A stretch of DNA of 64,000 nucleotides. Origin: Raillietiella orientalis (taxonomy: Eukaryota). Made by a program: the position numbers and the translations under genes. Shown one piece after another: positions 1,991-64,000 of this stretch; the first letter of the stretch is position 1; each line of letters begins with the position of its first letter. The stretch lies in NCBI GenBank assembly GCA_036172245.1, contig JAYWIR010000143.1, positions 1-64,000 on the forward strand, given 5' to 3'. The notes under the pieces were generated by a model. That model made no database searches, was not told where the DNA came from, and worked only from the letters and a program-made list of their open reading frames with translations.

Positions 1991-2197
1991 TCCCTTCCCT
2001 GCCCTCCAACTTCTTTTTGTTTGTTTCTTTTTATCTTTTTCTTTTTGTCTTATCCCCATCCCCCTTCGCTGTCGGGGAGTGCCACGCCGGGCTGCGTCCC
2101 GGTGTCCCGACAGGTCGTGTGTTTACGGCCGTGGTGGGGCCTTGTACCACGCAGGTAGAGTTTATTAATAAACGCCCCTGGCGTACCCGGGTGATAA

Positions 2198-2709
2198 CGC
2201 TGAATCCCTTGGCGAGTGGACGTGGTTTTCCTCCGCTCCCGAGTGAGTCGACAGGAAGCGGTTTTTTCTTGGTGTGTGTTCGTGTGGAACATCGTTGGTG
2301 TCCGATGGCAGCGATGCCTGAGGACACCAACGATGAGACAGGCGTGCTCTGCTTAACAGTCCCACGAGAGGGAAGTCATCCAGCACGCAGTACTATTCTT
2401 GCGGAGAGCTGCCCGATGGCCCCATCTGGGAAGTATGCGGACAGACCTCGAGGGCTTCCTTCGAAGGATGGGCCCTCCTCACAGCTTCCGGTGATCCCCT
2501 CCCTACCCTCCACACTCTTTTTTTTTGGTTCATCTCTTTTATTTTTCTTTTTGTTTTTTCCGCATCCCCTTTCGCTGTCGGGGAGTGCCACACCGGGCTG
2601 CGTCCCGGTGTCCCGACAGGTTGCGTGTCTAAGGCCGCAGTGGGGCCTTATATCACGAATTATAGAGAGTTTTTTCTAAATAAACGCCCCGGGCGTACCC
2701 GGGTGGCAA
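2198..2709 (+). mobile_element. Mini non-autonomous LINE derivative K (5' UTR + 30-nt inverted ORF2 piece + 3' end)
   Basis: 2217-2335 resembles the 5' end of J (61797-61914); 2334-2363 is identical to 20520-20549; 2364-2709 is homologous to the 3' end of A (1861-2197). Confidence 0.8.
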
Positions 2710-3598
2710 CACCAAACCCGGCAGGCATGAGGTTCATAGGGAACTCGTCGCAAAACTCCCGGACCGAGCTCTTGTAGCGGTTCCAGTCCTGAAGCGTCTG
2801 CAAGCTGAAACCTCGTATGAATCCGCGGAGATGCTCCTCGGCTTCCGGAAGTTTCAGCCAGTCCCCCGGTAAGCGCCACGCAGATGACGGCGGACCCCTA
2901 TCTCGTGGGCGCACCTCGAGTACGATCTGGTCATGGTCCGACAGTTCCGAAGGTAACTTGCCGCGCCTGCCCACGCGTGAGCATAGGTGCTGGTTAAGAA
3001 ACACGTGATCTATGCTGTGGGCCATTTTCGGATCTCCCGCGAACAAGTTGCGCGTGTGCATCTCTGCGCACAGTTCGTTCACGCGGTCCCGAAGTGTGTC
3101 GGACGTACCTGACAGCAGGCGAAGGTTAAAGTCACCTGCGATTAGGATCGCTTTGCGCACTCCCACTTCGTACAGATATTCGCGCCTCAGGGTAAGAAAA
3201 AAATCTCTCCTTGCCTTTGTCCTTAGCGCGTCGCTGCCGCTTGGGGCGTACACGTTGGTAATGACCACATCGATATAGTCGGACCACCTGATGGTCAACT
3301 GACCGACGCGACCGGCACTATCGAACCGTACGCCCTTTGCCGCAGCCTCGACAGCTGGACGAAGCACGAACGCGACACCGCAAGATTTAACGGTGCCGCA
3401 ATGCCACATCAGCCGTCCACCCGAGATACGCTCGATTTCCGTTGCTTGGTCTGCGGAGATCACGTGGATCTCTTGCAGCAGCACCAGGTCGAACGATGCC
3501 AGGGTGGAGGTCACGTCTCGTCTCTTGCCGTCGTCGCTTAGCCCGTTGACGTTCCAACAAGCAATTCGCAGACGGCGGCAAGAGGCGATTCCCGGCAT
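2710..3598 (-). pseudogene. APE-type endonuclease domain of B ORF2, truncated by K
   Basis: WNVNGL, LLQEIH, NVYAP, AGDFN, IDHVF and SDHD motifs. Confidence 0.9.
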
Positions 3599-3985
3599 TA
3601 AGACTAGGAACGTGGCGTTGCAGCACCTGTCAAGGGACAGGTGCGAGGGACGAGTAAGGGGACTGCGGCCATCTCAGGCACTTGAAGCACCTGGAGCACA
3701 GCCTCTAACCTGTCTTTTCCTCCGGGGTCGCAGCGTGATGTTACCTCTCGAGGAGAGTCCCTGGAGTTCCCCACTTTCTTCGCACGCTCGCTTCCCTCAA
3801 TTATCTCTCCCTTTTCCACGAACGGGATAATTTTTCGGGTAGCCTTCTTCGGGCGACTGGCCTTCGGGTGGGAGGCTGCGATGCCGCAGGATATGTTTTC
3901 CGCCTCTGCGTCAGAGTTCGAAATCTCCGACTTCTTGACCGAGGTCGAACGCCTTAAGGCCCTTTACGCGGATTTGGGCGGATGC

Positions 3986-3999
3986 TGCAAGGACGCAGC
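3986..3999. repeat. Left copy of a degenerate 14-bp TSD of the C array (right copy 35294-35307)
   Basis: tgcaaggacgcagc vs tgcaacgacgctgc, 12/14 identical; the flanks rejoin into one minus-strand ORF1 (..KKC[S/C]V[V/L]AASAQIRVK..). Confidence 0.7.
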
Positions 4000-4053
4000 G
4001 AGCTCCTCCGCTGCTCGCTCCAAGGAGACGTCGTCGAGCATGCGTTCGACGAC
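4000..4053 (+). mobile_element. Extreme 5' tip of a C-family leader (probably of C3, separated by the C1/C2 insertions)
   Basis: cgctccaaggagacgtcgtc..gacgac matches 59658-59695 of C4, where it continues into sequence found at 15663 onward. Confidence 0.65.
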
Positions 4054-4142
4054 AACGCTGGCACGGACGTGTTCTGTGTTGCTCCACGAGCGTGATTCCT
4101 TTCCGTCTTCTTGTGTGTGGTGTGCCCGGGTCGTCCACTGGG

Positions 4143-9650: not shown

Positions 9651-9950
9651 GAATAGGAACGGGTAGACAGTATACCCTTGTCCCCGCCCTCCCACTCAGT
9701 TTATTTATTTATTGTCCCAGCCCCTCCCGTTCCGAACTCTCAGTGTGCCCGGACTGCGTTTAGGGAAATCTACTCCCCATTTTCTGTTCCCCTTGCCTGG
9801 GAACACAGTTCCCAGTTGATATTATACTAAACGTCCCGGCGCAACCGGGTAATAAACGACAACGGCCGCACGGACGTGTTCTGTGTTGCTCCACGAGCGT
9901 GATTCGTTTCCGTCTTTTTGTGTGTGGTGTGCCCGAGTGCATCCACTGGG

Positions 9951-15455: not shown

Positions 15456-15661
15456 GAATAGGAACGGGTAGACAGTATACCCTTGTCCCCGCCCTCCCAC
15501 TCAGTTTATTTATTTATTGTCCCAGCCCCTCCCGTTCCGAACTCTCAGTGTGCCCGGACTGCGTTTAGGGAAATCTACTCCCCATTTTCTGTTCCCCTTG
15601 CCTGGGAACACAGTTCCCAGTTGATATTATACTAAACGTCCCGGCGCAACCGGGTAATAAA

Positions 15662-18600: not shown

Positions 18601-18856
18601 AAACTCGAGGAATGAGACGATCTCGAAAGATCGGTCCGCGAGTTCTGCTGCCGGTTCCCCTTGCACCTGCTTCTTTGCGGCTTCGGAGAGGGTGTCGGTA
18701 ACAGCAGATCCTATCTGCAGGCGCGTACCTTCTCCCGATGCCCCGACGTTCGGCGTCTGGCGGAGTACAAGGCCAGGGCCGAGCGCCAGGTTTGCAGTCT
18801 GGAGCGGATTGCCTGCTCGATGACGCTGGCCAGGAATGCTCGGTTGCAGCCGAAGT
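15662..18856 (+). mobile_element. LINE C3 segment 1 (5' UTR, ORF1, APE), interrupted by F+G
   Basis: Homology to C1; TGATG at 17798-17802; breaks after gccgaagt. Confidence 0.9.
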
Positions 18857-19871
18857 TTGTCACCCAGATATGCCGGTGCATAGCTCCTGTACCGAGTATC
18901 TTTCCTGCTGCGCGACTTTTGTCGGAGCCGACGGCTGATCCCCTTTTGTGGGGTTTATCACTATTTTTGCCTTCCCTTCCTTCTTTTGCGGAAGTTCCGG
19001 CGTTGGAGCGACGTTCATCGGGCACACCACTTTGGTGTGGCCCTTCGCGCCGCACGTTGGGCAAACTGCGTCCGGGCACTGCTTTTTCAAATTCCCGAAC
19101 GACTTACAGTTTCCACAAAATTCAGGTTTCCCCACAAACCAAATGTCGACGAACTCGTCGCCAATTTGGAGCTTGTGGGGAAGCTGTACGCTTTCTCGAA
19201 GCGTCACGTGCGCGCCTACTCGCCCACTAAATGCATTGTTCACTCCGAAGGTGTTGGGCTTTCTCCACATCGCGAAAACGCTTGCGAAATTTTCCAGTTC
19301 AGCGCGGATGGCGTTCTCATCCATCCGCACTGTTGTCCCTGTTAGGTGGACCACAATGGAGTGGTCCACCGTGTGTGGGAGTTAATTCCTGCCCTCAAAT
19401 TGTACGGGCGTGCAGAGCATCTTGTGGGTAAGAGCTGCATCCTTGCAGATGAGCTCCGCCAACTGCCCTCCGCTCCGTATAGAGAGGCAAAGAATTTCCT
19501 GGTCGGCAATGCTTATTTTTTGATGGCATTGCCGAACTTTCGCGCCCTTAACGGGGAATATAAATTGCCTACCTTGTACAGGAGGGCCGGATTGTAGCCC
19601 TCCTGGATGTAGGATTGGATTTCGGCGGCGACATCGGGCGTTTCTGCCGCTGCCACCACGCTCCGGGCCCTCGCCGTAGTGGCGGGTTCAGAAGAAGTGG
19701 TGAAGCGTGATCCCCCCTCCTATGGCTCGGGAGACGCGGTCTTCCCGCCTCATTCACCTCAAACTGCGGCGTTCACAGGCATTTCTGCCTGTCAACGGCC
19801 GCGAAACACACACGAAACACCAGAAAAGAAAAACTCCCTATCCACGGAGCGCACAACAATTGCGTCCGCCG
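18857..19871 (-). mobile_element. ORF1-only LINE derivative F (5' UTR + ORF1 5' part + terminal hairpin)
   Basis: CGNCKSFGNLKKQC and CPTCGAKGHTKVVC knuckles; ATG at 19782; ends directly in ccggcatatctgggtgacaa. Confidence 0.8.
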
Positions 19872-21050
19872 TTTGCCACCCGGATATGCCGGGGCATTTA
19901 TTATTCTAATTTTTTACAAAAATCAGAAAATAAAGTCTTTCAAAAGTTAATTGTGGGAAACACTTGCTTTTCCCACCTTGGTTGAGGTGTCTGTTGCCGG
20001 TGCATAGACCAATTAGGTCCATTCCCGAGGAGCATGGGGAGAAAAAACTTGAACAAAAATAAACAAAAAGAGAGATAACGGGGAGGGAAACAGTTGTATG
20101 GGGAGAGAAGGGGGCAGGGAAGGGATCACTGGGCGCCTGGGTCGGTCCTCCGCATCCTGTTCAGGATGCAGTCAAGTTCTGTTTTAACTCTGAAAGGTAG
20201 ACGCCACCTTGTCGCCGTCTCTAAAGAGATCGTCGTCCAGTGGATGGCGTCCCTGCATCTTGGGCCTCTTCTTCTGGCGTGCCACCTTTGCACAATGCCG
20301 CGTACGCAGCAGAGGACTGCTAGAGACGCAGCGGGGCGCAGGCCGTCACGCAGAAAGAGGAGACGGTAAATTTCTCCAGGGTCGCCTACTGGAAGATGTA
20401 GGATTGGGGCGATTGGACTCCAGAGTCCATCCAGGGCGACACACTCGAGGGTGAGATGCGGGAAGGTTTCTCTTTCTCCGCACTCGACACAGCGGGCATC
20501 CACATTTACCAGTGTCCAGTGAGACAGGCGTGCTCTGCTTAACAGTCCCCAGTGCAGGAATAGCAACGCCGTCTTCTGCCACTTCAACGGAAGTGTGCCG
20601 CAATACCAACACGCTGGGAGCCACTTCACCTCCTCCGGAGGTATTGCAAGCAGCTTTCCCCAGCGCGCAAGTCCGTGAGGCGGGACGCTCGGGGTGGCAG
20701 CGTCCGTGAGCTCTTGAGTCGTCCACGCCTTCAAAGGTTTTTTCCTGCCTCGGATAAGGCAGGACTCTCCCGACGATTCCAGCTCGTTGCTGCTCCTACG
20801 GTTTTTCAGGGAGGACAGATCGGGGGCAAGGGGACTGAAAAAAGTCCACAGAAATTTCCGGGGCGTGTTGATAATATCCTGCAGCGGCTGTCGAGCGTAC
20901 GGTCCTCGTCGTAGGCAGTTGTATTCCGCCTCGCTCTTGCCGTTGATCTTAGCCCACGCGGAAGCTGACTCCTGAAGCCAGGCAGTGCAGTTCGCGGAAA
21001 GGCAGGAGATCCAATTATTCTCCCTCATCAGGGCGAATTTTTCTTCCGTT
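19872..21050 (-). mobile_element. 5'-truncated LINE G (ORF2 C-terminus + 3' UTR)
   Basis: ORF 20126..21028 with CVECGERETFPHLTLEC; terminal aataaatgccccggcatatccgggtggcaaa. Confidence 0.88.
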
Positions 21051-21064
21051 CGCCGCCTCCGAAG

Positions 21065-21326
21065 GCGCTACTACTCCTCTTAGTACTCGGAGGAGCCCAC
21101 GCAACGCAGTCTCTCCGAGCCGCTTCTTCCGACGGGCAACCCTGCTATGGACGAAGAGGAACACGCCAGATTGGATTTGGCCTTCACGGCGGAAGAAGTA
21201 TTTCCCGCCATAGCGGGCCTGAAGAGGCGTAGGGCGGCTGGGGAGGATGGCCTGCCCGCGAAGTTATTTCAGTGCTTCGCGGCGGAGCTCGTTCCCCTAG
21301 TGCTAAGCCTTTTCTCGCTGATGCGT
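21065..21326 (+). mobile_element. LINE C3 segment 2 (ORF2 linker)
   Basis: Resumes ~15 nt downstream of the break at 18856 (RYYSS..EEPT); ends at TSD tcgctgatgcgt. Confidence 0.85.
21315..21326. repeat. 12-bp TSD of element D (second copy 32849-32860)
   Basis: tcgctgatgcgt is exact on both sides and present once in C1/C2 at the homologous site. Confidence 0.9.
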
Positions 21327-24300
21327 TTTGAACCCGGTTGCGCCGGGACGTTTATTTGTAAAAACGAACCACAATCTTCAAGGCAAATTCATCCTTTCGA
21401 GACACAAGAAACGCCCATACAGAAAGTTCAGCCCGGAAGGATCACCGGCACGCAGGTTGCCTTCCAAAATAAAGGAACGGAGATAGAGGTCTGCAGAATA
21501 AACAATACATAAGGGAACAAACAAAAAAAACAGTGGAAGGTAAGGTCAGGGATCTTTGTTATTAAACGTTCCTAATCTTTCTAGAAGCGCTGTTTGAAAA
21601 TGGCGACTTCCTTGGAGACTTTTCTGGGCAGATGAGGCCACCTGACAGCTGTTTCCATAAGGTTCGCAGCGATTCTGGCGGCGTCCGCTCGCTGCGAGCT
21701 TCCTTCTAGTTTACGGCGGGCGATCACGATGGCGCGGATGCAAGAGTTTGTTGCGATAACAGCGCCTTTATCCAGTCCGTCTTTGCTGAAGAAGCGTCGA
21801 AGCAGGTCTGTGGCAGTGTCCTGAGGACGACGAAATGCCGAAGCAAGTCCCCGCTATAACTCCCGCAAGTCACTACACTCAAGGAGCAAGTGCGTAAGCG
21901 ATTCTATCGCCCCGCACCTGAGGCAGTTCGGGGAGACGTGTCCCCCTGTAACCAAGTTTCTGCGCTTATTGCACTGAAATCCCCAGTGCAGAAAAAGAAG
22001 AACATCCTGTTTCCATCGAAGCGGGAACACGGAGCTGTCCACACACAAGGAAGGGACCACGACATCTTCGGGGAGTAATCCAAGAACCTCACTCCAGCGA
22101 AGAAGTCCCTTTGCCAGGTAACAAGGAGTGGCAGCGTCTACCAACACGCTCTTTCTGTAGCCGCTCAGCAGTCTTCTCACTCCTGCAATGCTGCAGAAGA
22201 ACTCCCACCTTGCCGGTTGGCTACTGTCGTTGTTTGCCCTGAGAGCAGACAGCGCTGCGGCGATGGGTGAGACAACTATCCGGGACCAAATCGACCAGTC
22301 CTGTAGGATCACTCCTAGCGCTTTGCGTAAGAGGACTTGTAAGGGTCGCACCTGCTGTGGGCGCACATCCAAAGTGGACGTCCAGTGCTCCAGAGCTTCC
22401 TGCTGCCAAGCATTCCAATTGGAGGGGCGGCAGGAAATCCAGGAATGGGCTAACAGCAACGAGGACAAGTGCCTCAGTGGGTAGCCAAATCCAGTTCTCC
22501 GCCGAAGTTTGCGCGGCAGCAACGAAAGCAATCCTGCACTGCCGACACATCGCTGGAGAATATGGCGAGCCGGAGCACACCAGTGACTAGACCACAATTT
22601 CCCACATAGGGATATAAGCCGGAACTGCACTTGCAGTGCAAACTTCTGGATGGTCAGGATGCCCAGGCCTGCGTCCTGGCATGGCGCCACCAAATCTTTG
22701 AGGAGAACCCTGGATCGCGCAGCGCCCCACAAGACCTTACGTAGGAGACGCTGCGGCCGGAGTTTAACCACATAGGGAGGTGGGCAAACAAAAAATAAGA
22801 AGCGGAGGCGAGGGGCAAGAAAAGTGTTCCATATGCACGCCCTTTCCGGCAAGACGAACTTGCCTTCCAGGAGCGGGCCTAGAGCCATCTCTGCCTTTTG
22901 AAGACAGGCCGACCACGATTCAGACGAGTAGAAGTCGCCCAACGGTACGCCTAGGTACTTGAAGTACCTGACCGTGGGGATCCCCAGGCGGATCCAGTCG
23001 GCCTGTCCCTCCCACAACACACCCACCGGCACGACGGAGCACTTCGCCCTGTTAACGCTCATGCCCGCTTCACGACGGATCAGCTCGAAGAAGTCTTGGA
23101 CCGAGTCCGACGGAGTAGACATGGGCAACAGAAGCAGAAGGTTGTCGGCGTATGCTGCCGCGGACGGAGTGCACGGAGAGGCGCTGGGCAGGACGGCCAG
23201 CGTCAGCCTGTACGCTTTTAGCACCAACTCAAAGTAGATGCTGGAGAGCAACGGGCTTAAGCTATCGCCCTGTCTGATGCCTCTGCGCACGGCCACTCCG
23301 TAAACACGGGAGCCACTGAAATACAAGTTGATAATCGCGTGCCGCCAGCAGAAGCGCATGTACAGGAGAAGATGATTCGGAAGCCCAAGACGCTCCAGGA
23401 GCTCCAAGAGGAGTTCCTGGTTTACGCAGTCGAATGATTTCTGCAAATCTACTGCTAGTGCCAAGGCTCCCGGCCTTTCTTCCGTCCGTCCGCATCGGCG
23501 CACGCAGTCGGCAGAAGGTCTTGCCGCTGTTCGGCTTTCCGCCGCAACGCGCTCTTGAAGCCTCCACCAGGTACGCGCGAAAAGAAGGTTCGCATCCATG
23601 GATCTTCCCGGTACAGCGTAAGACTGCTCCGGGCTTACCACGGACTCCGCGACTTTCCCTAAGCGCGTGATCCACAGCTTCGAAAACAACTTGACGTCCG
23701 TATTCACTAATGTGATCGGACGCCAGTTGTTAAGTTGACGCAGATCCCTTCCTTTCGTAAGGAGACGCACGCTTGCTGAGCACAAGGAAGAAGGGACATC
23801 GTCCGTCACCCTCATCAGCGTCGAGATTCTAAGAACCAGTTGGGCGAGTTCCGTCGCAAAGCTCTGATAGAACTCCGCGAACAGTCCGTCCTCACCTGGC
23901 GTCTTCCGTCTCTTGAGTCCTGCGATAGCGGAAGAAACTTCCTTCAACGTGAAGGGCTCGTCGAGACGATCGCGTTCCTCCTCGCCGATGCCATGTGCAG
24001 CCCGCGGCAAGAGTAGTTCGGAGAGGACTCTTTTCGTCGGGGAATTAGCGTCGAGCAAGGAGGAGTGACGCTTTAGTGCTCGCCGCACTTCGGCAGGAGC
24101 CGTGCATTCCCTGCCTTGGTCGTCGAGCAAAATAGCCGCTCCAGACAGCCAGACCTAGCGCTGTGCCCTTGCCTTGTACTCTACGAGTTGCCGTACTTCC
24201 GCACGTCTCGAGAAGGTGCGCGCCTGCAGAAATGCTCTGCTATTGGCCACGGCTTCCCCGAAGCCGCGTGGTGGCAGGTGCAGGGGGAAACGGTCGCAAA

Positions 24301-36498: not shown

Positions 36499-38582
36499 TA
36501 AAGAGGTCGACTGCGTGGACCAGGATCTCCTGCTGGAGGTCTCCGTCACATGGGCTTTCCACCCACCTATATTACCTAGCTACTCTCCTGCAGTCGCAAT
36601 GCGCTGATCACGCTTTGTTTTAGTGGACAAAAGGTGTATGGCGTTCCTGTGCGGCGGGGCATAAGAAAGGACGATAGTCTCTGTCCCCTGCTCTTTAGTA
36701 CCTACTTTGCTTTGGTGCTGACAGCGTACAGGGCTGCTTTGGCTCCCTTGGCGAGCTCGTGCCTTGGCACTCCCGCCGTTTCAGCGTATGCCGTCGATCT
36801 TCTGTTTTTTTTTCCTATGTCCACTACGGCAGCGACAGAAGGGGACTTCTTTGATTCGCTTATTAGCGGGACCGGACTGCTCATTAACCAAGCTAAGTCA
36901 TCGGTGGTGCTAATTGGAGCGACGTGGGTAGGATGGCCTCACTGGATCCTTTTGGCCAGGCACCTGAAGAAACTAAGCGTTCTGCTGGGGGACCTCTGTC
37001 CCACAGAAGCTTGGTCAGGTCGTATTCAAAAAATGGAGTTGGCGATCGGCCCGTCCCTGGAAGATAAGTTTTACTTCCAGGAACATTCCGCGCTTTGGAA
37101 CGCCTTCGCGGCCCCCATCCTTCATCCTCTACTCTTTGTTTGCTTCGACCCGTAGAAATAAAAAAAAGGACCAATGAGATCCTTCGCATCGCCCTTTGGG
37201 GCTAGGGTAGGCCCTGAGTCCCTTTGAAGGACTTGTGCGCTTCGCGTCGTCGCAGCGGTCTTAGCATCCCGACACTGGAGCGCGTGGAGATTCAGCTGCA
37301 GTGGCGAACAATGGCCATCGCAGCGAAGATGTGGTGGACACCTTGGTGCATTTTGTCTCGACTCGTTGCCAGCCGTGTATCTCGAACCGAGAGACTCGCA
37401 TCTTTTCTTCTGTGTTCATGCCGGAAGATCCGAAGATGCGGCCTACTGCTCGGACGCATGGCAGCCATGCCGAAGGAGAACAGTGGATGCTTTGCTGCTT
37501 CTTCAACTTCCCCGCTTGCCTGTTGGAGAACATCGGCCCGTGGGCATTCCTAAACCAGAGGATACACGAGACGTTGATGCACCTGCGACGTGGCCCCTTT
37601 GCCCGCTGCACTCTGCGGAACCTTCTGGAGAGTCATGCCAGAAGCACGTGGACAGAGACAACCTGCCTAGCTACGGCGCTGCTCTTCCTGAGAAGGGCGC
37701 TTCACAGCAGCCGGACGCCAAGGTGGCAAGTCTCCTGCTGCATAGCGGGACGGGAGAAGATGATGAGCGGATGAGAGAGCTGGCTGACGCCACGACCCCG
37801 AGCGTCCAGCCGAGAGGACTTTTGCGATAGGGAGAGCTGCTCGCCATCCCGATGGAGGAGCTGAAGTGGCCAACGGTTTCAAGAGAATTCAGGATCCTGC
37901 CCCTTCAGTTGTAAGAGTCGACGTTGCTCCTGTTGCACTGGAGTTTACCCTGCAACACTCACCTCTTCCATTGGACAAGGGGAGCTGTGGATTCTGCGTG
38001 TGCTGGATGCGGGGAGCGGGAATACCTCCGCCAACTCATCGTTCACTGTGCTGCCCTCCGACCACTTTGGGAAAGGTTTGGGCCGACCGTCGGGATCCCG
38101 ATGGGCAGCACCCCCAGAGACGTTCTCCAGTATCTCTTGGTGTGGGACGCCCTACAGCCAGTCACTGTCCTAGCAGCATTCTGCTACGTTCTAGGCATCG
38201 TGGAGGCTTAAAACGACTCCAACAACGAAGATCGGGACATGAACGAGAGGTAAGCCATCCAGCATGCTGTATGCTTCCTGTACAGACCTGAACGATGACT
38301 CCATCTGGGGAATATGCGGATGGGCATCGAGGGCTTCCTTAGACGGATGGGTCCTCCTCCGAGTGAACTTTGATTTCTTCTCTTCCTTATAACTTCTTTT
38401 TGTTTTGTTTATAGTATATTTTTGTTTTTGATTTTTTCCCATATCCCCTTTCACTGCCGTGGACAGTTACTCCGGGTTGCGTCCCAGCGTCTATGCACGT
38501 GCGGTGTCTATGGCCTTGAGCGCAGCCTTGTATTTCGCTTTTGTGATATTTAAATAGACCCTCCGGCTTACCCAGGTGGCAA
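36499..38582 (+). mobile_element. LINE L: decayed A-family 3' half
   Basis: Colinear with 21-2197 (ARCTLRNLLES, RGAVDSACAGC); decayed terminal hairpin at 38561-38582. Confidence 0.88.
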
Positions 38583-42400: not shown

Positions 42401-45400
42401 TAAGGAGAAAATATGTTTTCCAGCTATTCCGCGGTGCATCAACTGGATTTCGAAGATCTCACTTTTCAGGAATTCTTCTAGCAGATTTGCCTCGCTGCAA
42501 TGTGGTTGAGGGAAAAGTATCGAACCACCACGTATTGGGATCCGCTTCCGTTGTGCCCTCATGAAATTTCTTTTAAAGACATAAGTGTTCTTCAAAGCAC
42601 GCGGTGTAACAAGCAAGTAAATCTACTGTAAGGTTTTACGTTCAAAGGAGTCAGTCGTACTTCCAGCACTTGCTGAGCCAGGTCTTCTCCTTTGAACAGC
42701 AGCAGACCAAGTGCTGCGCAGAACAGAGTGGTAAATAGCTTCTCCGTTAAAATTTACGTTGAAGGATTGATGATTCTTCTCTTTGACAACCAGCCTTTGG
42801 AGTTCTTTTTCCTTCCACTGCTTAGGCAGAAGCTCCTTACAGTCCTGCCTGCGCTAAGAGGAATACCTTCAGCCGGTAAGATAGTGCTTCTTCCGAATGA
42901 TGGGAGGTGCGGAAGCAGCTCACGGTCGAGGAGCCAGGGAGCTGGCAAACGCTACAATTCCACATTCTCGGAAAATGGGATCCCCTGTGGTGGTTGGGAG
43001 TGTTGCATCGTGCTGTACAAGGAACGCCTTTTCACCAGTTTGTTTTCGAGCGGCGAGCGTGTCTATCACTCTCCCTGTGGCTGATCCCACAGAGTGAGCA
43101 ACAGCATTTTATTCCAAGTGAGACCTGGATAGCGTAGAGAGCTTTCACATTCTGGATTACCCTTAAACGTGATTTGACTCACCTGCAAATTTCAAAAGTT
43201 GGGAATGGCGAATTCCCTGTGACAAAAGTCGCATTGGAGACTTCTCCGGAGGCAGTGGTTGCTTCAACGAGTAGGGATAAAACCATAAGCTTGCTAACCA
43301 GGACTTCTTTTCTCCATGGCTGCAGCAGTTATCCTTAAATGCAAGTAGATCTGATATGAAAATCCTTTTCTATTTGGTTCCTTCAGGAATTTCAACATTT
43401 CCGAGTGCGCTCGACGAGTGCTTGTAACGCCTGCAAGCGGCAGCTGAGGAGAGCTATGAAGTACAAATGTAGTCTTGGGCCACCGCCTACTCAAGTCGAC
43501 AATGTGTGTAGAAAGCAGGGATGTGACCCTTCCTATCCCCAAGGGCGAATTCGTGTTGATCCATCCTAGACAGGTTGCTGCCGATGTGCAGATGGATGAG
43601 GTAATGACCGAACTATCAAGGTTTGCTTCCGTTTGTGCTGATTAGCGTAGAAGTGCTATGATTGCCCCTCAGCAGAATTAGTGGGCTGAAAGAAACGCGT
43701 ACGCGCGTAGAAAACACGTTTACCAGCTTACAATAACTGTACATCAACAATGGAATCGCCCACATGTAGTACGAGACGAGGCCTAAGGCTGCGCACTCTG
43801 CAAAGTCACGAGAAACGTAAATCAAGCTCACTCGATGTGGTCAAGCTGCCATAATTTGGCATTTGCAGGCTGCGTGGCAAACTATTGCAAGATAAAAGGA
43901 TGCACGACAAGCACAATTTCCAGGAAAAAGAACGTGGGCATAAAAAAGGTACTAGCCCTTAAGTCGCCTAAGGAATTGGAGGATGCAATGGATGTTTCGG
44001 GCTCAAGTAGGAGTTAAATAATCTTTGAGAAGTGAAAAAAATAACTTAACAAATTCAGAAAGACAAAAGCATTCCAGAAAAAGCATTCAAGACGAAGAAA
44101 ATAATGCCGCGAAGGGTACGAAGGAGGAAAGTGCACGACGTGCAATGCGAGCAGAAACGACCAAGACGATGCCTAGGGAGGAAACCAAATAAAGTCATTA
44201 CTGATATATTTCTCCTTGCACGCGACCTTCTGCGAGGTGGCGCTGCCGAAGGGAGAAATATCTTCTTACCAAGGCCTTCACGGGCTCTGGAGCAGCAAAT
44301 AGCTTTGCGTAACTCGGAAATGAAGTAATTCAGCGCGACAAAATCGCTTGGACCTTACCGGGGAGGGCACCCCTAGGTTAGTAGGAGGAAATTGGCTTCC
44401 AGTTAGAAAGAGTTGGGAAGCGTACGAGTATCTGACGGAATCGTGTTCGGCCACAGCCTTGTCTCCTCCGAAGATGAGTCCCTCGCTACTGTTCCTCCTG
44501 CGGCTATGCGACCTACCACCCAGGTGGAAAGGCTTGCAAGCCGCATTCTTCTTTGGAGACACACTGAGAAGACCAGCCTCTGTGACCACCTTTGGCTATC
44601 CCTTTCCGAACCTCCCAAAGGTGTTCCTATTTGCATTTTTGTTGCTTTTGTTTCATTTTCTTGCCCCTTATCCCTATGCAGCCGAATTGAATTTGTCTGG
44701 TCTGCGTCCCGGCATGTCGGCAGGTTTTGCATGTGATGAACGTGACAGAACCGAGCGTGCTGCCACACTTTGGTACGCTTCCTTTTTCAAAAAAGGAAAT
44801 GAACACACCGTCGCAACCGGGTGGAAAAACACCGTCAACACAACCCTCGATAATGCGTGTAGCATCAGCGGCCTGCGTGCAAGAGCACCAAGAGTTAAAT
44901 GCAAGTGGATCACCTCCGGAATTCCCACATTATGCTCCTGCAGGAGGTGCACTCTCTCTCCATGCAGATCATTTGCGAGGTCGAACAATGCTCAGGAGAA
45001 ATCACTTGAGGTAAAGTGCGATTTTGCATACATCTTTGGAGTCACATGCCTATTCCTGATCCTCACCTGAGTTGGATGATGCCACTTGCTTTCATCGACG
45101 AGGACAGACGGACAGGTCGTCGGCGATCCACTGACCTCGCGCAATAAACCTCCTCATAATGAGCGAGTACGCTCCCTTCTTCTGTCGATAGAATCAAAAC
45201 AAGTTTGACTTTCTGGAGTTGAAGTGATCCTTCATTGCAGCCAATGCACTCTGGGATGACATCATACGGCAGGGAAACTCCCTTCTGATTTTTCTGCATT
45301 TAGAAGGAGCGCTTTCCGAGTCCGCGCCTAGAAGTCAATAAAATGTTAAAATATGTGTGCAGGTGCACGTCACTAATCCGCTGGCAGAGAAGCGTGAAAG

Positions 45401-51400: not shown

Positions 51401-54400
51401 CAATTCTTGTCGATCTCGTCGTTTCCTGGATCGCATGGACTGTCAGGTGATTGCATCCGGCTTCTCCGTTCGCCACGTCCACTTCTCCTGCCAGCGACCA
51501 ATCCAAAGAGGTCGATCAACGGTAATATAGAGATACCTGCATTTTCTGGGAAGGCTCCTGAGGATGCGTTTTGGTGCTGAGACTGCTCCTTTTGCCTTAA
51601 AGCATCCAACTAGCTATGGAGGACGAAAGCAAAAGTGTACCACTGAGGAGGATTTGACGGGACATTCCTTACCTCGAATGCTTCTTCTTTTTTCGAGGCT
51701 GCTTTCGAGATGAGGATACAGCCGAAGCAAACAAACACAGGCTCGAACGAGGGATGCGCTTTCCGATCTGTGGAGATGGCGGGTGGTCCCCCAATGCAGA
51801 ACGTGGCGTTGTAGTTTTACATTCTACCTGGATGGCCGAAGATCACTATCACCTTCGGTTCCTTCGTTTTCCAAGAAATCAAATCGTTGTCTACTCTTGT
51901 GTTTCCTTCCTCCATTCACACGTAAAAGCCACCCCTGTCTGCACGGCAAGAGCCCTGTGCAAGAAGCGTGCGTTCCTTGAAGGGAAGATCATAAAAAACA
52001 AAGGAACTCGCAAAGCCTGTTTTTTACCCTTTTATCTCACTCTGTTTTTTCCATTCCTGCGTTGCCAAGGTTGGACTTTCAAATCCATTCTCAAAAGAGT
52101 TGTTTCCTTCTTTTATTTCTTGGTCGCTGGCGTGCTTGGAAGGAGACCTTCTCAGTCTGGATCGGCGTCGACTGATAAGTGGCGCTTTTGAAATTCGCAT
52201 CCCTCATCCCAGTTAAAACCCACGCTGTGCGGCCTCCATGCTGTCTGTGTTGCAAACCAAATAGAAAAAAATTCAAAGGAAATAGAACGAGTTGGGGCAC
52301 GAAATCCCGTGAAGCGTCCACTTTCCTTTCTTCCTCATTCCTTTCCTTCGGTTTTTTGTTTTCAAAGTCCATTCCTTTCATCGTTTTCTTTCTCAACTTC
52401 TTTTTTCTCTTTTCTGCGCGTCCTCCTGGGTAACTATTACTTCTTCTTAATTACTATTAGTATTGACCTCCTCCTTCCCTCATTCTTGCGTTCTCTCCTT
52501 GCTTCCCTATCGTCCTCCTCTATCTACCTCTCTTGGTTCCTCCTTCTCTCGATTGTCCTCTTTTGCACCTCAATCCTCTTCTACAACAGCAGCACACCTC
52601 TTGGAATCCTATCTGCATCATGCGCCTTAAACAGACCTTTCCAGCCCCGCCTCACATCATGCAACGCGATCAAAGGAAGCGCAACCTTCTGCATCCTGGG
52701 CACTCGCTCTAAAAATGGACATCCATGAGAAGCGCGCACTGACCCGGGCACGCTGATGTCATGATATTTGCCGGCAAAGACGGCATGGAAACGGCCATCA
52801 TGCTCATCCTAGACCGACGGTTACTAAGCAGCTAAAATTCCGTGGGATGACAAAAGCCGGATTTTCAAGAGAGCTGTACCTTCTGTAATTCGTCCTGGGC
52901 TGCAAAATGTTGCGTTTAACTGCGTAAACGGTACAGCATGCGGGTTGATTTGAATCCGTGCGGCGTCAGGTTCCCACAGAGGTGTCCGATCATCGTGCGG
53001 CAGGGAAAGCAGCGATGTTCCCGCAGAATTCTCCCCCGGTTCTCGCCCCACTTGAGTGCATCACAGCCGCAAATGTACGAGAAATGCGCCAGGAGCTGCT
53101 TGCGTGGCTTACTGTCAAGCAGCCTTGGACCACTCGCCAGATTTGTTCCGGTGCACATGCGCGTTTTGCGACGACAAAAGAACGTGCTTGCAGAAGGATT
53201 TCCAAGCGCGAATTCGTGGTCTTCCAGCGGATTGGCAGGTGATATTTCGATAAGGCTCAGAGTGTGCATTAGCAATTCATTTCCGAAATTTCTTCGTCTT
53301 CAATGCAAAAGTTCACGCGCTGGAAGCTCATCCCCTTTGCACTTAACGAACGAGTCCACAGTTTCGAAACTTGACAGTCTGTAGACAAAATCAGTCAGCG
53401 ACAGCACTCTTCAAGCTCTCTGTTTATGCACGTGAGATTTTTAGGATAGAAAAACGCAGCTCCGTCATTGTGGGACGAGTGACGAACGTTGCAGTGTTCT
53501 TGATAATGATAGTGTCCAGACTGCAGGAGCGCTGCATGCTGATTGCTCTTTGAAACTCCACATAAATAGACTTTATCTGTCAATTGAAATGCACGTAGGA
53601 ATATAGAAACAAGAAAACGGTATACGCGTGTTTGAGCACCTTGGCCTACATATTTGTAAACCGTGTCAACATTCTAGTCGGACTCCAGCCTTGAGCTGCT
53701 ATAGGCGACGTACAGTTCCGAAAGAAGGAATCTTGGAGCAACACCAGGAAATGTCGTCTGATACTCTTTCTAATTTTGAGATGGTCTTGCAGATCATTTT
53801 GAAGCAGCCATCACGCGAAGTACACGTAGCTGAATACGTTATGAAAACCAACCCGGGCATAGGTCGTCATCAGGGAGTGCAGGTCAGATTGCAGGAAGAA
53901 TTTTGTGATCGAGAATCTACAGATCTTTCCAAATAAGCAATCGTTAAAATGCTAAACAAAGTGGAGATGCCTGTCTGAGATTCTGTGCACTATCTGCTCC
54001 GAATAGCAATGTCTGGAGAAAGCAGAGAAGTGCCTCATATCTCGACAACCTGGCCACATGAAACACAAGACAACAACAGAAGCAATAAGAGAACATCCGA
54101 AGACTATATAGAAGTGGATTGCGCTGACACGTGCAACAAGATAACTCGGAAAGACGCGAACTCAATGGTGTTTGTTTAGGAGACGATGTATCAAAACATA
54201 GCATCCTCACGAAGAAGAAATAGGAGATCCCAAACAGATGATGATGGCTGTCGGAATGTAACGTCTGAAGCGTATGCATACAAAGGGGATTCCCTACTTT
54301 ACATTCTACTTCAAAATGCGATGCTTTTCTACCCTGTTGCCTTGAAACGTTTATTAACAATTCGGATCATTTGGGGACATGGATCTCAGGCAAAGGGAAC

Positions 54401-57400
54401 AAAATATCGGAGAGAAGGCTCCCGACACGAAAGGAGGACACAAGAAAATGCGATGCTCGGAATTTTCGACTTGAATAAGTTTTTGGCGATTTACAATTGA
54501 AACGAAGAGTATGTCGTGAGCTGTGAAGAGTGCTATTAGCAATAAATCGATATTGAGAAGACGTGGAAGCACCCTGAAAAATCGTGTTAGAACATGTAGG
54601 AATGATAAAGCGGACGCTAGGGCAAAGTACGAGAAGTACGTTCGCAGCAGAGCGCTTGCAGAGGTCGCGACCGAGCTGCAGGGCTGCTGCAGGGCTGCTG
54701 CAGCTCCTTCAACACTCGTTGGTCAACCATGAGCTCTCTTCTCGCTGTTCCTGGAAAAGAAGAGAAGGCGACGACGAGCAAGCAGTGCTGTATGCTGGTG
54801 GGACAGGCGAACAGGCAGCAAAGAGGGAAGTCGTTCCGAAAGTATCAAGTAGAATGACGGATCGGCAGAATATGGAGATCTTCCAATATCCTTTGCGAGT
54901 TCTTGTAGCGAGAAACGAAGCGCTATGAAGGTAATTATGTTCGTACAACTGCTGTATTCAGGCTGGCACCTCGGTTGAGGACGCATCTGTCGCTGTCGTT
55001 GCGAGAAGAATAACTGCTTTGTGCGATGGTTCCTCGTGCAGATGAAATCGGATCGTCATCAACGCACTCCTGCCTTGTGGGAGAACTACTCACTGGCATA
55101 AAAAAGCCTCAGTTTACCTTGAAACCGCACCCAATACCCCGCGTGAACTTCGTGGCATTGCTCTGCCTCATCAGCACCGCTACAGGGCAAGTGATCTTAT
55201 ATAGAGACAGCTCTCGCGAGCCAGAAAGCGGTTTGTGTGGAGTACGCAGCAGGAGCATCTCTCGAGTCCGCACTCTTTGCTTTGAAAAACACGAGAACAA
55301 AATGGTCAGAATCCAGAGCAGGGCCATCAGCAAAGACGTTTGCTTCGTCTGGAAGTGTTAAACACGGTTTTGCAGGGGCATTACATATTATTCAGTAATG
55401 TCCCGTGCTCAGATGTGGCGAAGCAGTTGGTTGCATCATCATGTGCACGCAAGTTGCCATGACCGCCACGTAGAGGGATGAGCCTCATTTGTAGAGCAAC
55501 AGGGAAGAAAAAACCCGAAAAGAAGAAACCAACAAAGAATGCAAAATGAAGAAATAAGTTTCAACGGGGGGCGAGAGGAGACAGTAAAAGTGGTCACAAA
55601 TTTCTCGGGAAACGATCTCAGCATTCTTCATATCAGGCCTAGTTGTTTACGTATCTCTCACAAATGGCACCATCTCGAGAGGGTGATCCAGAAGATTGCT
55701 GCCAAGTGGATGGCGTCTTCACCATTTCTATCTTTTCTGCTTGTGCACCACGCCACCAGCACACCTCAAAGACAAAAGGGTCACATATTTCTATTTATAC
55801 ACCATTATCAAAAAAGAAACAACCATTACATATCCTAGAAACAGAAAACACCTATCTTGCAAAACAAACAATACAAATCACTCTATTCCTTCCCAACCCC
55901 ATTGACGATCATTTCATGAATGCTACTCGATTCCAAAGAATAATTCATAAACTCACACTCACAACTACCTACCTAACCAACACCACTATATACTTCGAAA
56001 CCAAAATCCACGTATATTACCACAAATAGTTATTGTTACTGCGATGAAAAAAGCTGGAGGTAGTGCGGGACGCGAGAAAAGGCGTTTGCAAATATCTCTT
56101 GAGTCTCCAGCCGGGATTCTTGGAGTCGCCGAGAAGCTATTCTCAGAGAAAGGGAGTGCAACACAGTCTAAAGAAGAAACACTCCCATCTCTAAAGAAGT
56201 CACCTGCCATTGCCCTCCAATAATTAAAAAGAACTGCGGTCAAAGGTGTGAAGGAGGCACCTTTCTTCTTCCTCAGCAATAGCCAACCGTCCTCGGTCAC
56301 ACTTTAGCTCTCCGCCTGCTTCGCCACTGCGGACGTGCGCTTGCCGACGGGCGTGGGTTTTTGCTGTTTTGTGCTCCTCCTGAATCGCCTCTTGTCATCA
56401 GAAGAGGACGCTGTTTGCGTAGAACACACCCGCGACATCCGCACTTTCTTTCCGCACAAGAAGCGGAATGCTGGATGCTGACGACATCTCTTCTTGAGGT
56501 AACCTGTGGCTTCGCAGTTCCCTCAGTATTTCCGTTTCCCCACACACCACAGATCGACATGTACCTTGCCGATCTATAGTCTGCTTAGTGCCCCACTGCT
56601 CTTCCGAGCGTCACACGCTTTGCGACAACCCGATTGCAAGCTGTCGAGAGAGCCCAGGCGCTTTTGCAGTTCAACTCCACAAGCTGCAGCCCGCTACCCG
56701 CAGAAAGAATGACTACCTACCACATCCTCGAAGAGGTTTCGCTTTCTGAGCCTTTGGAGGAAGAAGCAAAAAAGAATATAGGATGCCTACCTTGCACAGT
56801 AGGGACGGGGTGTACTCGTCGGTTTCGTACGCCTGCTGATCCGTTGCAAGAAGGCTGGAGAAGCCGCCTCCGCAAAAGCGCCGCGAACCCTCGCAGGAGC
56901 GGGGTACCATTTCGTGGGTGCGCTTGTCCTCCTTTCCATACGTTGAGAAAACGAAATGCCTCTGTTCTGTTTAGCCGAAGAAGATGCGTAATCCGGCATC
57001 TTAGCTCTCAAAGGACCGCAAAGGGCATACAAACTTAACCTAAACTCACCGTTGCGGTACGAAAAAAAAAAGGCCGTTCGAGGCAGCCCAAGGAGAATTC
57101 AGTTGCGTAATTTAAAAGAAGGCGTCTTTTCGCATAGAACCAGGGGACCGAGTGAGTTGCGAAGGCAACCGTGCGGTTCGAAGGCAAGCTTGCGGGTTGG
57201 GGCGAACTGGGGATCGTGCCAGGACCGCGTTTCACCAGCATGTGATTTGGCTGGCTGGGGCGTGCACGTGTGTGCTGCTGCGCACCAGCTTGATGGACAC
57301 AGTCGCCCACCGAAAGGCGATCAGGAGCACCGATCGGACTCATGGATTCGCTTTCCAGAGTGTGCACGCACCTCGCACACCTGGCAGGCAAACGCGCCCG

Positions 57401-61020: not shown

Positions 61021-61790
61021 AAAGTCCGTGTCTCAATAAGGTCGCGAAGATCTTTATTCTCTTTGACTTCGCTTTGCACATGAAACCATGTCTGGCGAAG
61101 AAAAGGTTATCCCCAGTACTTAGTCCAGGAACAGCGTAAGTCTGCTCCGGGCTAAATACGGATTTAGCTGTCTGTCCGTGCCGCGCAGTTCACAGTTTCT
61201 CGAACAACTTGACGTCCGTGTTCATGACTGTGAACGGACGCCAGTTCTTTAAATCCCTGAGTTTTCCCCCTTCCGGTAGGAGCCTGACTCTGGCTGACCG
61301 AAGCGAGGCGGGAACATCGCCTACATCCCGGATCATCTGTGTCAACTTATGCACCAAGGGGGTCAACTCTGCCGCGAAGCCTTGAAAAAACTCTGCGGGC
61401 AGGCCGTCCTCCCCTAGTGCCTTCTGCCTCTTGAGTCCTTTTATTGTGGTGAAGCTTTCACCGCTAGTAAAAGGCTCGTCGAGGCTTTCCTTCTCTTTCT
61501 CTCCTATGGCCAGGGCTCCGTCCAGGAGCAGCAGTCGCGAGGCGTCCTGCTCCGAAAGCGCCCTGGCGTACAAGGAGGAATAAAATTTTTTCCCGATGTG
61601 TCGAATCGCGGCAGAAGCCAAATGTTCCCGGTCCTAGTCGTCCAGCAGGGTGGGAGGCTTGAACTGCCAGGTCTGGATCTCAGCCCTGGCTCGGTACTCG
61701 GCCAAGCGACGGACGTTGGTGATCCTCTCTTAACGACGGGCGTATAAATACGCGTTTTCGTTGCGAGTACCTATTCCAATCCCGGCTCGT
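61021..61790 (-). mobile_element. LINE N: ORF2 fragment (post-APE linker to RT start)
   Basis: ORF 61190..61621 with KALGEDGLPAEFF and NWRPFTVMNTDVKLF. Confidence 0.85.
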
Positions 61791-62819
61791 CGACAGCGGA
61801 CCTGTTTTTCCGTCGCTTCCTCAGCGAGGCTTGAGAAGAGTTTTCTTTACGAGTGTTTGTGCTTTTTCACATCGCCGGTGTCCGATGGCAAAGATGCCAG
61901 AGGACACCGCGATGGAAGTAGGCGTGGAGGAGGCTAGTTCTCCCTTACAGCCTACTGGATTGTAAGCATCAGCCCCACAATCGTCTTCGCCGCAGCAGGT
62001 GAAGACATGGAGCGCCATGATGGAAGCGCCCAGCGCAGAAGCCTTGGCGGAACAAATGGCCTACCGGGAAGCAGGATATAAACCTTCGCCCATATATAAG
62101 GTAGGACCATTATTTGATTGGCGGACTGCACGCGCCTTCTCGAAGGCGCTGTGCCGCTTGCCGAACGCAAGAACCCTTGGCGAAAGGGGTTGCGTAGACC
62201 GGCAGCGGCTAAACTGGCCCCCGCAGGTGAGTCGGACCGGGAGGCCGGAAGTGCATCCTCCTCTGCGGAAGCACCACCAAGGAAAGCGGGGCGAAAATCC
62301 CAGAAACCCCGAAGGTGCAATCCGCCTCCGCGCGAAGGGGATCCAATGGAGGAGGAAAAAGTGGATGGCAGCGTGGGAGCCCAAGTCCTGCATCACCCAC
62401 TTGCGGAAGCCGACGAGTAGGCGACTCCAATGGAGGAGGCTAACCAGGGGTCAGCAATGTCCCCTGAAACCGCCGAACCTAAACCACCCGCACCAATGGA
62501 TGTGGGCAGTCGGGTACGAGCAACACCCCCTCCGCACGGGCAGCCGGAGACGCCGGCACTTAAAAAGGATGGGGAGTTGGTGGGCAACACGCCAACCCCG
62601 TCCAGCGACCTGCCCCAAAAGGTAGCGGGAACTTCACCGCCAGGTTCCCAAGAATAACACCTGGACTCGCCTGTTGCCGTCGGATCCGCGCGGCCAGTTC
62701 GAATGTCAACCGACTGCGTGACGACGGAAACAGTCGAGATACAGCCGCCACCTTGCGAGATTTCGACCTGGTGCTTTTGCAGGAGATCCACGTGATCACT
62801 ACAAAAGACTCCCAGGAGA
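61791..62819 (+). mobile_element. LINE J: 5' UTR, internally deleted ORF1, APE start
   Basis: KTWSAMMEAP..AYREAGYKPSPIYKVG; FDLVLLQEIHVI at ~62762-62797; knuckle region missing. Confidence 0.8.
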
Positions 62820-64000
62820 TTTCTCACCCGGTCACGCCGGGGCGTTTAATCCATATAACATAACAAAAAAAACCATTATACAAAATATACCAGTTGGGAA
62901 CCAAACTCCCAACCGACGACTGAACAAGAATGAAGAGAATATTGCTGGCACGCAGGCCAGACTAACAGTTTTACGAACGGTGTTTGTGGGCGGGGAACAC
63001 AAAGAAAGCCAAATAAAATAAAAACAATGAATAAGGAGGACGGGATAAGGGTCTTTGGCATCGCTCTGGAAGACACGGGAATCAAAGCATGGACACCGGA
63101 AATTTTACCGAGCGAACGGGGACAGGGTATGAGTGGGCGAGAGGTCGCAAGAGTCAGCGGATTACGACGTTCTCAAAGGTTTGTAAACCAACGATGAATG
63201 CCGGTGATGTCCTCATTCACCTTGTCACGAAGATGAGACCACCTTGAAGCCTTCACCATGAATTGAGCTGCAAGCAGGTGAGCCTCCCTTCGCTGCGCTG
63301 ACAACTCCAGGGCGATGCGGGCCTTCACGATGGCGCGAACGCAACACATGGTTGCGACAATCGCGCCATCCGAAAGTCCATTTCTGCTGAAGAAGCGCCG
63401 CAGCACATCAATGGCAGTGCCTCCTTGTGGCATGATAACCGAAGTGAGCCTTCGCCACAGTTTTAGGAGGTCACCGCAGTCCAGCAAAAGGTGCGGAAAA
63501 GACTCGATCTCTCCGCACCTTAAACAGTTTGGCAAAGCAGCTCCCCCGGAAACGATGCTTTGCTGCCTATTACAGTGTAATGCACAATGTAAAAAGAGCA
63601 GCACATCTTGTTTTCACTTTACAGGCAACACTGAGCTCTCCAAACAAACGGGGGGAACCACTATCTCTCCGGGGGGCACACTTCAATGTTCGCTCCACCG
63701 AAGCAGGCTCTTCGCCCGATTCCGAGAAGTGGCGGCTTGCCCCAGCTCCTTTGTCATCCAGCTGCCGAAGAGCATACTGACTCCCGCTATTTTGCAGCAG
63801 AACTCCCATTCCGCCAGTAGGCAACCGTCGTTGCTTGCCCTGAGGGCGGACAGCGCTGCGGCCAGTGGTGTGGCGGCCAGACGATCCGACAACTTCTTGT
63901 CCTGCATGAATTCGTCCATTTGATGTCTGAGGAGAAGTCGCAGGGGTCGAAGTTCTTCCGAGCGCGTTCCTTCGGAAGCATCCCACGATGAAAAAGATTC
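62820..64000 (-). mobile_element. LINE M: ORF2 C-terminus + 3' UTR (runs off the window)
   Basis: CLRCGEIESFPHLLLDC; terminal attaaacgccccggcgtgaccgggtgagaaa. Confidence 0.88.

Follow-up and report, generated by a model that had tools for sequence, protein, structure and literature searches.

In this study, we investigated the 3' ends of the non-LTR (long terminal repeat) retrotransposons, or long interspersed nuclear elements (LINEs), in a stretch of 64,000 nucleotides from Raillietiella orientalis (GenBank assembly GCA_036172245.1, contig JAYWIR010000143.1, positions 1 to 64,000 of the forward strand), which is referred to here as the window. We observed that these ends share a block of roughly 34 nt, laid out as AAUAAACGY, CCCGG, a loop of 4-5 nt, CCGGG and U-NNN-A(1-4), in which a GC-rich stem is retained while the loop differs between families. 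With moderate confidence, we consider this block to be the element-encoded 3' terminus of one L1-like clade, acting as a 'stringent-type' RNA handle for the protein of the second open reading frame (ORF2p) and likely carrying a poly(A) signal within it.

Occurrence of the terminal hairpin

The elements are designated here by capital letters, and E, a distant LINE without the CCCGG/CCGGG motif, is treated apart from the others. The motif CCCGG-N(3-6)-CCGGG has seven matches in the window (2688, 9835, 15640, 19879, 21333, 35274 and 62827), compared with a mean of 0.33 and a largest count of 3 in 100 dinucleotide-preserving shuffles, none of which reached seven. All seven perfect copies lie at element 3' ends, and the frequent occurrence away from such ends, by which an earlier note on this DNA would have recognised a host target sequence, is not seen in the window (0 of 7). 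At 2176, the end of A has one extra T, with which a 5-bp stem is still possible as a bulged form, and decay has altered the copies at 18863 and 38561. All ten hairpin sites which the earlier note had reported for the non-E 3' ends were thus recovered (10/10), with one reassignment: the site at 18863, which had been taken as the end of F, is instead the tail of a minus-strand unit with ORF1 only, which has the loop of G and is inserted in a C-like element. It had also described these ends as having no poly(A) tail and only one to four A, and the A-runs are indeed 1-4 nt long at 10 of the 10 listed ends.

The position of the motif was confirmed by a search that does not depend on it, as tblastn with the intact ORF of D located the eight non-E ORF2 C-termini (A, C1, C2, C3, D, G, L and M), and in 8/8 cases the motif lies 450-617 nt downstream on the coding strand. 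A covariance model, the check that had been proposed earlier, was built from seven ends and scanned over both strands of the 64 kb. The eight intact ends scored 41-49 bits, and nothing elsewhere scored above 18 bits. Five weak matches were recorded at 10-18 bits, namely the tail of L, the site at 18863, 44795 and 25979 on the forward strand and 54325 on the reverse strand. Judging by their sequence, those at 44795 and 54325 appear to be further decayed tails, and the one at 25979 is probably noise.

Among the intact ends, the block of A (2164..2197, forward strand; 44.7 bits) reads AATAAACGC, with CCC(T)GG-CGTAC-CCGGG followed by TGATAA, and the ORF2 C-terminus of this element ends at 1684. 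On the same strand, the block of C1 (9823..9856; 49 bits) reads ACTAAACGT, with CCCGG-CGCAA-CCGGG and then TAATAAA, and the blocks of K (2676..2709), C2 (15628..15662) and C3, the 3' part of F (35262..35295), scored 41, 49 and 43.6 bits, respectively. On the reverse strand lie those of D (21326..21359; AATAAACGT; CCCGG-CGCAA-CCGGG, then TTCAAA(A); 46.1 bits), G (19872..19905; AATAAATGC; CCCGG-CATAT-CCGGG, then TGGCAAA; 44.8 bits) and M (62820..62853; ATTAAACGC; CCCGG-CGTGA-CCGGG, then TGAGAAA; 44.7 bits). The decayed tails comprise a G-type tail of the ORF1-only unit (18856..18881, reverse strand; ACCGG-CATAT-CTGGG, then TGACAAA; 10.2 bits), an A-type tail of L (38550..38582, forward strand; 12.5 bits), a candidate old tail in low-GC DNA (44795..44828, forward strand; 18.1 bits, E 0.3) with a decayed 5' arm and an intact CGCAA loop and 3' arm, and a 120-bp, 5'-truncated C-like tail (54325..54444, reverse strand; 12.2 bits) whose hairpin arms are not intact.

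Outside the window, AAACGY-CCCGG-N5-CCGGG-T gave six matches in viral contigs and at least 120 in prokaryote contigs, one per contig in both cases, which is at the level of chance by our estimate of about 140 in 596 Gb. A metagenome scan for relatives with D, P0001 and A as queries returned six loci with distant reverse transcriptases (RTs) only, at 19-63% identity over short stretches and with no usable tails, and the contigs of one sequencing run (word share 0.23), compared with positions 1800-21500, gave short, diverged pieces with no usable ends. At Rfam gathering scores, U4 was the only match in the window, and lenient scans of two of the tails gave only chance-level matches to bacterial small RNAs and small nucleolar RNAs, at E values of at least 0.2. 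The tail has no match among the Rfam families, including the UnaL2-type LINE 3' element, the histone 3' stem-loop and the R2 element RNA, which we take to be Rfam families.

Conservation and folding of the block

Alignment of the last 110 nt showed similarity between families in the final ~35 nt only. Over the last 34 nt, the mean pairwise identity among K, C1, D, G and M is 74% (69-83%) against 45% in shuffles. In the next 300 nt upstream, compared in five segments, it is 44-51%, which equals the shuffled controls (45-50%) and agrees with the earlier observation that the rest of the 3' untranslated regions (UTRs) differs between families. The five stem pairs are identical in all seven aligned intact ends, as are the preceding AA.G and the following T, and four of the five loop positions vary, so that the conserved stem and variable loop described before are upheld. 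The loops are CGTA in A and K, CGCAA in C and D, CATAT in G and CGTGA in M, with a length of 4 or 5 nt. The sole two-sided difference is an extra G...C pair, giving a 6-bp stem with a 4-nt loop in K against a 5-bp stem with a 5-nt loop in C, D, G and M; the ends with a CGTA loop (A and K) are given a 6-bp stem.

The hexamer before the stem is AATAAA or ATTAAA at five of the ten ends and a one-off variant at four, and is lacking at one, so that the 'usual' presence of AATAAA, ATTAAA or ACTAAA holds in its canonical AATAAA/ATTAAA form for half of the ends only. It stands 2-3 nt ahead of the stem and about 25 nt ahead of the terminus, and the terminus follows at a fixed 7-11 nt beyond the stem. 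The T-RRY reported after the stem was found at eight of the ten ends and fails at D (TCA) and M (GAG).

Folding energies of the 34-nt block are -8.1 to -13.2 kcal/mol, and the block is more stable than 95% of shuffles in 5/8 intact ends, and the hairpin is present in the 70-nt minimum-energy fold in 7/8. Pair probabilities by context length were scored for K, C1, C3 and D, and with 60-100 nt of context the hairpin reached 0.45-1.0 in all four. The folding models thus describe a hairpin that is local and plausible, but weakly predicted in long contexts. An extended stem, in which positions -2/-1 pair with +3/+4, fits K, G, L and C and does not fit A, D and M, and was dropped. The bases ahead of the stem are complementary over 6 nt to a motif of the 5' UTR, and this match was set aside because so short a stretch carries no meaning.

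Termini and target-site duplications

The block is the true terminus of the element and belongs to the element rather than to the target, because the target-site duplications lie outside the motif and the ten downstream flanks all differ. D is flanked by an 11-bp duplication, TCGCTGATGCG, with both copies inside F (21315..21325 and 32849..32859); it begins straight after TTCAAA(A), and the duplicated bases are the F sequence which D split. The copy at 54325 has a perfect 12-bp duplication (54313-54324 and 54445-54456) directly after its A4. Again, the homology of C1, C2 and C3 ends at the tail, and the ten downstream flanks, which include other LINEs in either orientation as well as unique DNA, are mutually unrelated. 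No convincing target-site duplication was found for L, K, the C1-C2-F array and the copy at 44795.

The duplications of D and the 54325 copy begin with CGCATC.. and GCATCG.., and that of E with TTAGCG.., none of them starting with an A-run. In mammalian L1, T-rich primers anneal to the poly(A), hence the duplications that begin with an A-run. Primer ends of this kind are unable to pair with an A-tail, and it must therefore be a contact between protein and RNA that positions the template.

Element proteins and classification

The elements encode a 577-aa ORF1 upstream, followed by an apurinic/apyrimidinic (APE)-type endonuclease and an RT in ORF2. Pfam Exo_endo_phos (45-54 bits) and RVT_1 (54-71 bits) both score above their cut-offs, and a C-terminal zf-RVT match in one copy lies slightly under its cut-off. 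The sole intact ORF covering the RT and C-terminal region is the 766-aa one of D. Against solved structures, its RT is closest to human L1 ORF2p (5e-30), with R2 next (1e-12), and the best match of the endonuclease is the L1 endonuclease. In the protein collection, the only close relative of this ORF is an unnamed metagenome protein with 56% identity, and the named relatives are plant L1-like RTs at 21-26%; comparison with the protein clusters of the Atlas gave generic RT clusters, one of them named TX1.

By these sequence matches, the elements appear to be L1-like in a wide sense, which sustains the earlier assignment to an L1/Tx1-type lineage. Insertion into one specific repeated target, a trait of the Tx1 group, was not observed, as the downstream flanks and the duplications all differ. 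L1-clade membership is compatible with the absence of poly(A), as 13 of the 15 green-algal L1-clade families listed in Table 3 of PMC3747384 have no (A)n. The families had been called divergent, and the last 181 aa of ORF2 are indeed only 30-49% identical between the non-E families; still, A/K/L, C, D, G and M form one clade and are less unrelated than that term implies.

Proposed function and its alternatives

From its sequence features, the motif is most likely a signal for recognition by the RT, for 3'-end processing, or for both. In the mechanism that we propose, the GC hairpin in the RNA would be bound by the element's own ORF2 protein, which would then start target-primed reverse transcription at a fixed 7-11 nt past the stem, so that a poly(A) tail would be unneeded and the target primer would not have to anneal to the template. 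The AAUAAA-like hexamer, ~25 nt before the terminus, would probably double as the cleavage and polyadenylation signal that makes the RNA end. The stem would be the clade-wide part, and the family-specific loop may set which protein accepts which RNA. The signature is of the stringent type because the arms are invariant, the loop is free, the distance to the end is fixed, a tail repeat is absent and the upstream UTR is at random level. We infer all three of the RNA fold in vivo, the binding by ORF2p and the role of the hexamer as a poly(A) signal.

Several observations weigh against this reading. In three of the eight intact ends, the gain in stability over shuffles is not significant (A 0.056, C3 0.066 and M 0.176), and of the four ends scored for pair probability, only one keeps at least 0.45 at 150 nt of context, with about 0 in the other three, and none does so at 300 nt, where the best value is 0.37. 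No covariation was found among the intact copies, as all five stem pairs are identical, and for this reason conservation of the primary sequence, or a palindromic site in the DNA, would look the same as an RNA hairpin. Despite the perfect 12-bp duplication around it, the copy at 54325 departs from the C type at 7 of 15 hairpin positions, and among the observations it is the only one that is hard to reconcile with a strict need for the stem. Its broken arms reflect either fast decay of CCGG/CpG sites or a master copy that may itself have been stemless. All the evidence comes from one 64-kb window. Finally, E belongs to an unrelated LINE lineage and has the same end layout with a different hairpin, and this layout fits a host 3'-processing constraint as well as recognition by the RT, which keeps a processing explanation alive. 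The tail of E (31320-31360), a single copy, consists of AATAAAC, 8 nt, its own GC hairpin and AATC with no poly(A), and its last 34 nt fold at -10.2 kcal/mol.

Under the processing explanation, which we regard as unlikely though still to be reckoned with, the block is mainly a signal for 3'-end formation, in which the hexamer and a structured spacer fix the cut site and the hairpin serves the host machinery. The layout shared by E agrees with it, as does the AATAAA hexamer, canonical or with one change, that stands 2-3 nt ahead of the stem at nine of the ten ends, with the terminus about 25 nt after it and within the usual 10-30 nt between a poly(A) signal and its cleavage site. However, processing alone leaves the 1-4 A unexplained, since L1-like priming predicts long A-tails and D, with its perfect duplications, has A3-4. 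The ORF1-only unit at 18856, moreover, keeps the hairpin and tail without an AATAAA.

Another explanation is that the block has no specific function and is common by descent, or by exchange of 3' modules through RT template switching, and has not yet diverged. Template switching does occur here, as the chimera of U4 and E described below indicates, and stems that never vary offer no positive proof of selection on pairing. Nevertheless, we consider this explanation very improbable, because the adjacent 3' UTR is at random level and the ORF2 C-termini are at 30-49% identity, yet the 10 arm positions and the flanking bases are invariant in 7/7 ends; the loop positions between the arms have also diverged, whereas a recent exchange would have brought the loop along unchanged.

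With the block taken as a handle for ORF2p, the question of which element serves which can be considered. The earlier note had proposed that the shared hairpin allows cross-mobilisation, a proposal that is not borne out, as the loops are family-specific and the short derivatives carry the loop of their presumed parent. K carries the loop of A and has ~340 nt in common with it, and the ORF1-only unit has only about 27 terminal nt in common with G, including G's loop and without the hexamer; A and G are the presumed parents of K and of the ORF1-only unit, respectively. Each of these presumed non-autonomous derivatives is represented by one copy only. For the zebrafish elements ZfL2-1 and ZfL2-2, PMC4176376 describes an ORF2p that recognises the stem in a general way and the loop in a specific way, and that works with its cognate tail only. 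By this analogy, a common stem with different loops predicts family-restricted mobilisation, and family-restricted use of the common stem would fit our comparison better than free cross-mobilisation, with C and D, which have the same CGCAA loop, perhaps as an exception.

Head-to-tail junctions and growth of the cluster

Four head-to-tail junctions were identified in the window, namely A/K (2197/2198), C1/C2 (9856/9857), C2/F (15662/15663) and G/ORF1-only unit (19872/19871). Each of them joins the A-run directly to the first base of the next element with no duplication between. Simple tandem duplication is excluded, because the downstream members start at different 5' positions. The junctions possibly arose by double insertion at resident tails or by template jumping onto the hairpin end of another RNA. 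Double insertion at resident tails is described as able to give such junctions (PMC5932611, PMC8226300), and R2 is reported to jump from a finished complementary DNA to the 3' end of another RNA, producing head-to-tail repeats and U6 fusions in cells (PMC11371274).

A full-length copy of the U4 small nuclear RNA (snRNA) lies at the 5' end of E (25834-25973; Rfam RF00015, 74.8 bits), and U4 and E together are enclosed in one 11-bp target-site duplication (25820-25830 and 31361-31371) inside D. From this sequence arrangement, U4-E is read as a chimeric snRNA-LINE retrocopy, a mark of RT template switching. We tentatively raise, as a rather doubtful extension of the handle model, that the hairpin is also an acceptor for template jumping, such that ORF2p takes the 3' end of the next element RNA, or rarely an snRNA, and one integration yields a head-to-tail string of LINEs. 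If this were true, Zepp-like, centromere-type clusters would grow here by concatenation instead of targeted insertion, and concatenation would take place in an L1-like lineage without need for poly(A) or primer-template annealing.

The least credible of the explanations takes the palindrome as a DNA homing site, with incoming elements integrating at resident tails and building arrays and nests as Zepp does: the four tail-to-start junctions greatly exceed what chance insertion in 64 kb would yield, and Zepp L1-clade LINEs are described as targeting existing copies and forming tandem arrays (PMC8226300), but the sequence downstream of D, M, K, the ORF1-only unit, L and the 54325 copy is unrelated, none of the motif is contained in the duplications of D and the 54325 copy, the target of D inside F was motif-free already before the insertion, each copy has one hairpin with no duplicated tail at the tandem junctions, and homing would account for the landing place and not for a block at every copy's own end.

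Comparison with known systems

Conserved 3' hairpins are already known in LINEs, including those of the L1 clade, and the tail described here introduces no new principle. A full-text literature search, with curated repeat libraries outside its scope, found no description of this particular tail. Stringent LINEs are described as requiring a 3' stem-loop that is bound by ORF2p (PMC3747384, PMC4176376). The stringent tails of the L2 clade (eel UnaL2, zebrafish ZfL2-1 and ZfL2-2) resemble ours in having a short 3'-terminal stem-loop which is conserved in the lineage, with no reliance on poly(A), and in combining a common stem with a lineage-specific loop, as these two accounts report. They differ in belonging to the L2 clade and ending in short tandem repeats such as (TGTAA)n (PMC3747384), whereas the elements of the window have an L1-like RT, no 3' repeat and an AAUAAA-like hexamer abutting the stem.

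Closer in lineage are the plant L1 elements of the Monocot-1a group and the Chlamydomonas L1-1_CR and SINEX-3_CR discussed by Ohshima (PMC3747384), which are of the L1 clade and have a hairpin in the last ~45 nt, far better conserved than the rest. That account takes them as evidence of stringent recognition inside the L1 clade and describes a tail common to L1-1_CR and SINEX-3_CR. Its Table 3 lists 15 L1-clade families of green algae, 5 of which lack a 3' repeat altogether. According to the same source, however, the plant and Chlamydomonas elements both carry a terminal poly(A), and the plant stems show compensatory changes with a conserved loop (UCU) and flank (CGAG), whereas in the window the stem is invariant, the loop is variable and no tail is longer than A4.

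Zepp and ZeppL of green algae are similar in forming nested and tandem clusters of one LINE group, which reach 42 kb in Coccomyxa and are GC-richer than their surroundings, at 61% against 53% in Coccomyxa (PMC3446292, PMC8226300) and about 55-62% against 45-50% in the window. Zepp differs in its (A)n end, as given for this L1-clade LINE in Table 3 of PMC3747384, and its likeness to the window was judged from the cluster pattern.

Mammalian L1, which is of the relaxed type, shares the architecture of APE endonuclease and RT, the closest solved RT, 5' truncation and variable target-site duplications (11-12 bp in the window). It also shares the occurrence of a chimeric snRNA-LINE retrocopy in one duplication, though the one found here carries U4. 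The usual snRNA in such chimeras is U6, and the nick sites of mammalian L1 are T-rich. The main difference is that mammalian L1 is described as depending on poly(A) (PMC3747384), which the elements of the window do not have. As with our proposed handle, the R2 protein binds a structured 3' UTR. R2 also primes without annealing of primer and template. It differs in having a restriction-like endonuclease and a single ribosomal DNA target, and its RT match to D is far weaker than that of L1 ORF2p (1e-12 vs 5e-30).

Whether the ancestor of L1-type elements was stringent, with a specific 3' structure, or relaxed, with poly(A), is raised as an open question by Ohshima (PMC3747384). The window provides a compact case inside an L1-like group, in which at least five families at 30-49% protein identity have the same 5-bp GC stem, loops of their own and no tail repeat. 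Stem, loop and swap mutants of these tails would be informative on how an L1-like ORF2p chooses its template and on the hitch-hiking of non-autonomous derivatives, and, together with the junctions and the U4 chimera, on the formation of dense LINE clusters.

Element map and other features of the window

The map was built by self-comparison of the window and by tblastn. The first 38.6 kb and the last 4 kb have a GC content of 55-62% and consist nearly entirely of non-LTR retrotransposons, and the intervening stretch, compared over 40000-56000, is LINE-free DNA with 45-50% GC. No recognisable gene was found in this low-GC stretch, where 16 ORFs from 40.8-58.9 kb gave no Pfam match, and a tRNA search of the window found none. 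A 21-nt dinoflagellate spliced-leader motif was likewise absent. Within 1-38.6 kb there are at least 12 LINE units, some of them nested (D in F, E in D and G in F) and others joined head-to-tail at the four junctions given above.

On the forward strand, A (1-2197), whose 5' end lies outside the window, is followed head-to-tail by K (2198-2709), a short A-like unit of 512 bp without an ORF, the final ~340 nt of which are an A-like 3' UTR (82% identical) and the first 167 nt of which match nothing else in the window. C1 (about 4033-9856) is head-to-tail with C2 (9857-15662), which is 96% identical to it and stands in front of F. The latter, also on the forward strand, is C-like and lies in three pieces (15663-18855, 21065-21325 and 32849-35293), the third of which is the C3 of the earlier note. 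Inserted in F are, on the reverse strand, the 5'-truncated G (19872-21064), the ORF1-only unit (18856-19871), which is head-to-tail behind G, and D (21326-25819 and 31372-32848), which is itself split by E (25831-31360, forward strand), with about 25% identity to D in the RT. L (36481-38582, forward strand) is A-like and 5'-truncated, and M (from 62820 to beyond 64000, reverse strand) is an antisense insertion in the endonuclease region of another LINE. That a single element, split by the whole array, accounts for the minus-strand pieces at 2660-4030 and 35300-36480 was considered and rejected, as these are not collinear with a related copy.

The ORF1-only unit, of 1 kb, consists of a 5' leader and an ORF1-like frame with a CCHC-type zinc knuckle, which reads into the terminal hairpin and takes its stop codon from the TGA of the tail. 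This 'half-LINE' derivative occurs once in the window. A resemblance of the 5' parts of K and this unit to the 5' UTRs of C and D, seen by eye, was rejected for lack of significance (z no higher than 4). The 5' ends fall into two classes: F (15663) and the copy at 59694 begin ~100 nt further upstream with identical first bases, while C2 (9857) and D (32848, reverse strand), the start of which is defined by its duplication, begin further downstream, with starts no more than 7 nt apart. Two transcription start sites, or a leader that is optional, may account for the two classes. In addition, the RT region of A contains a 73-bp tandem duplication at 464-606, with two copies that are 97% identical.

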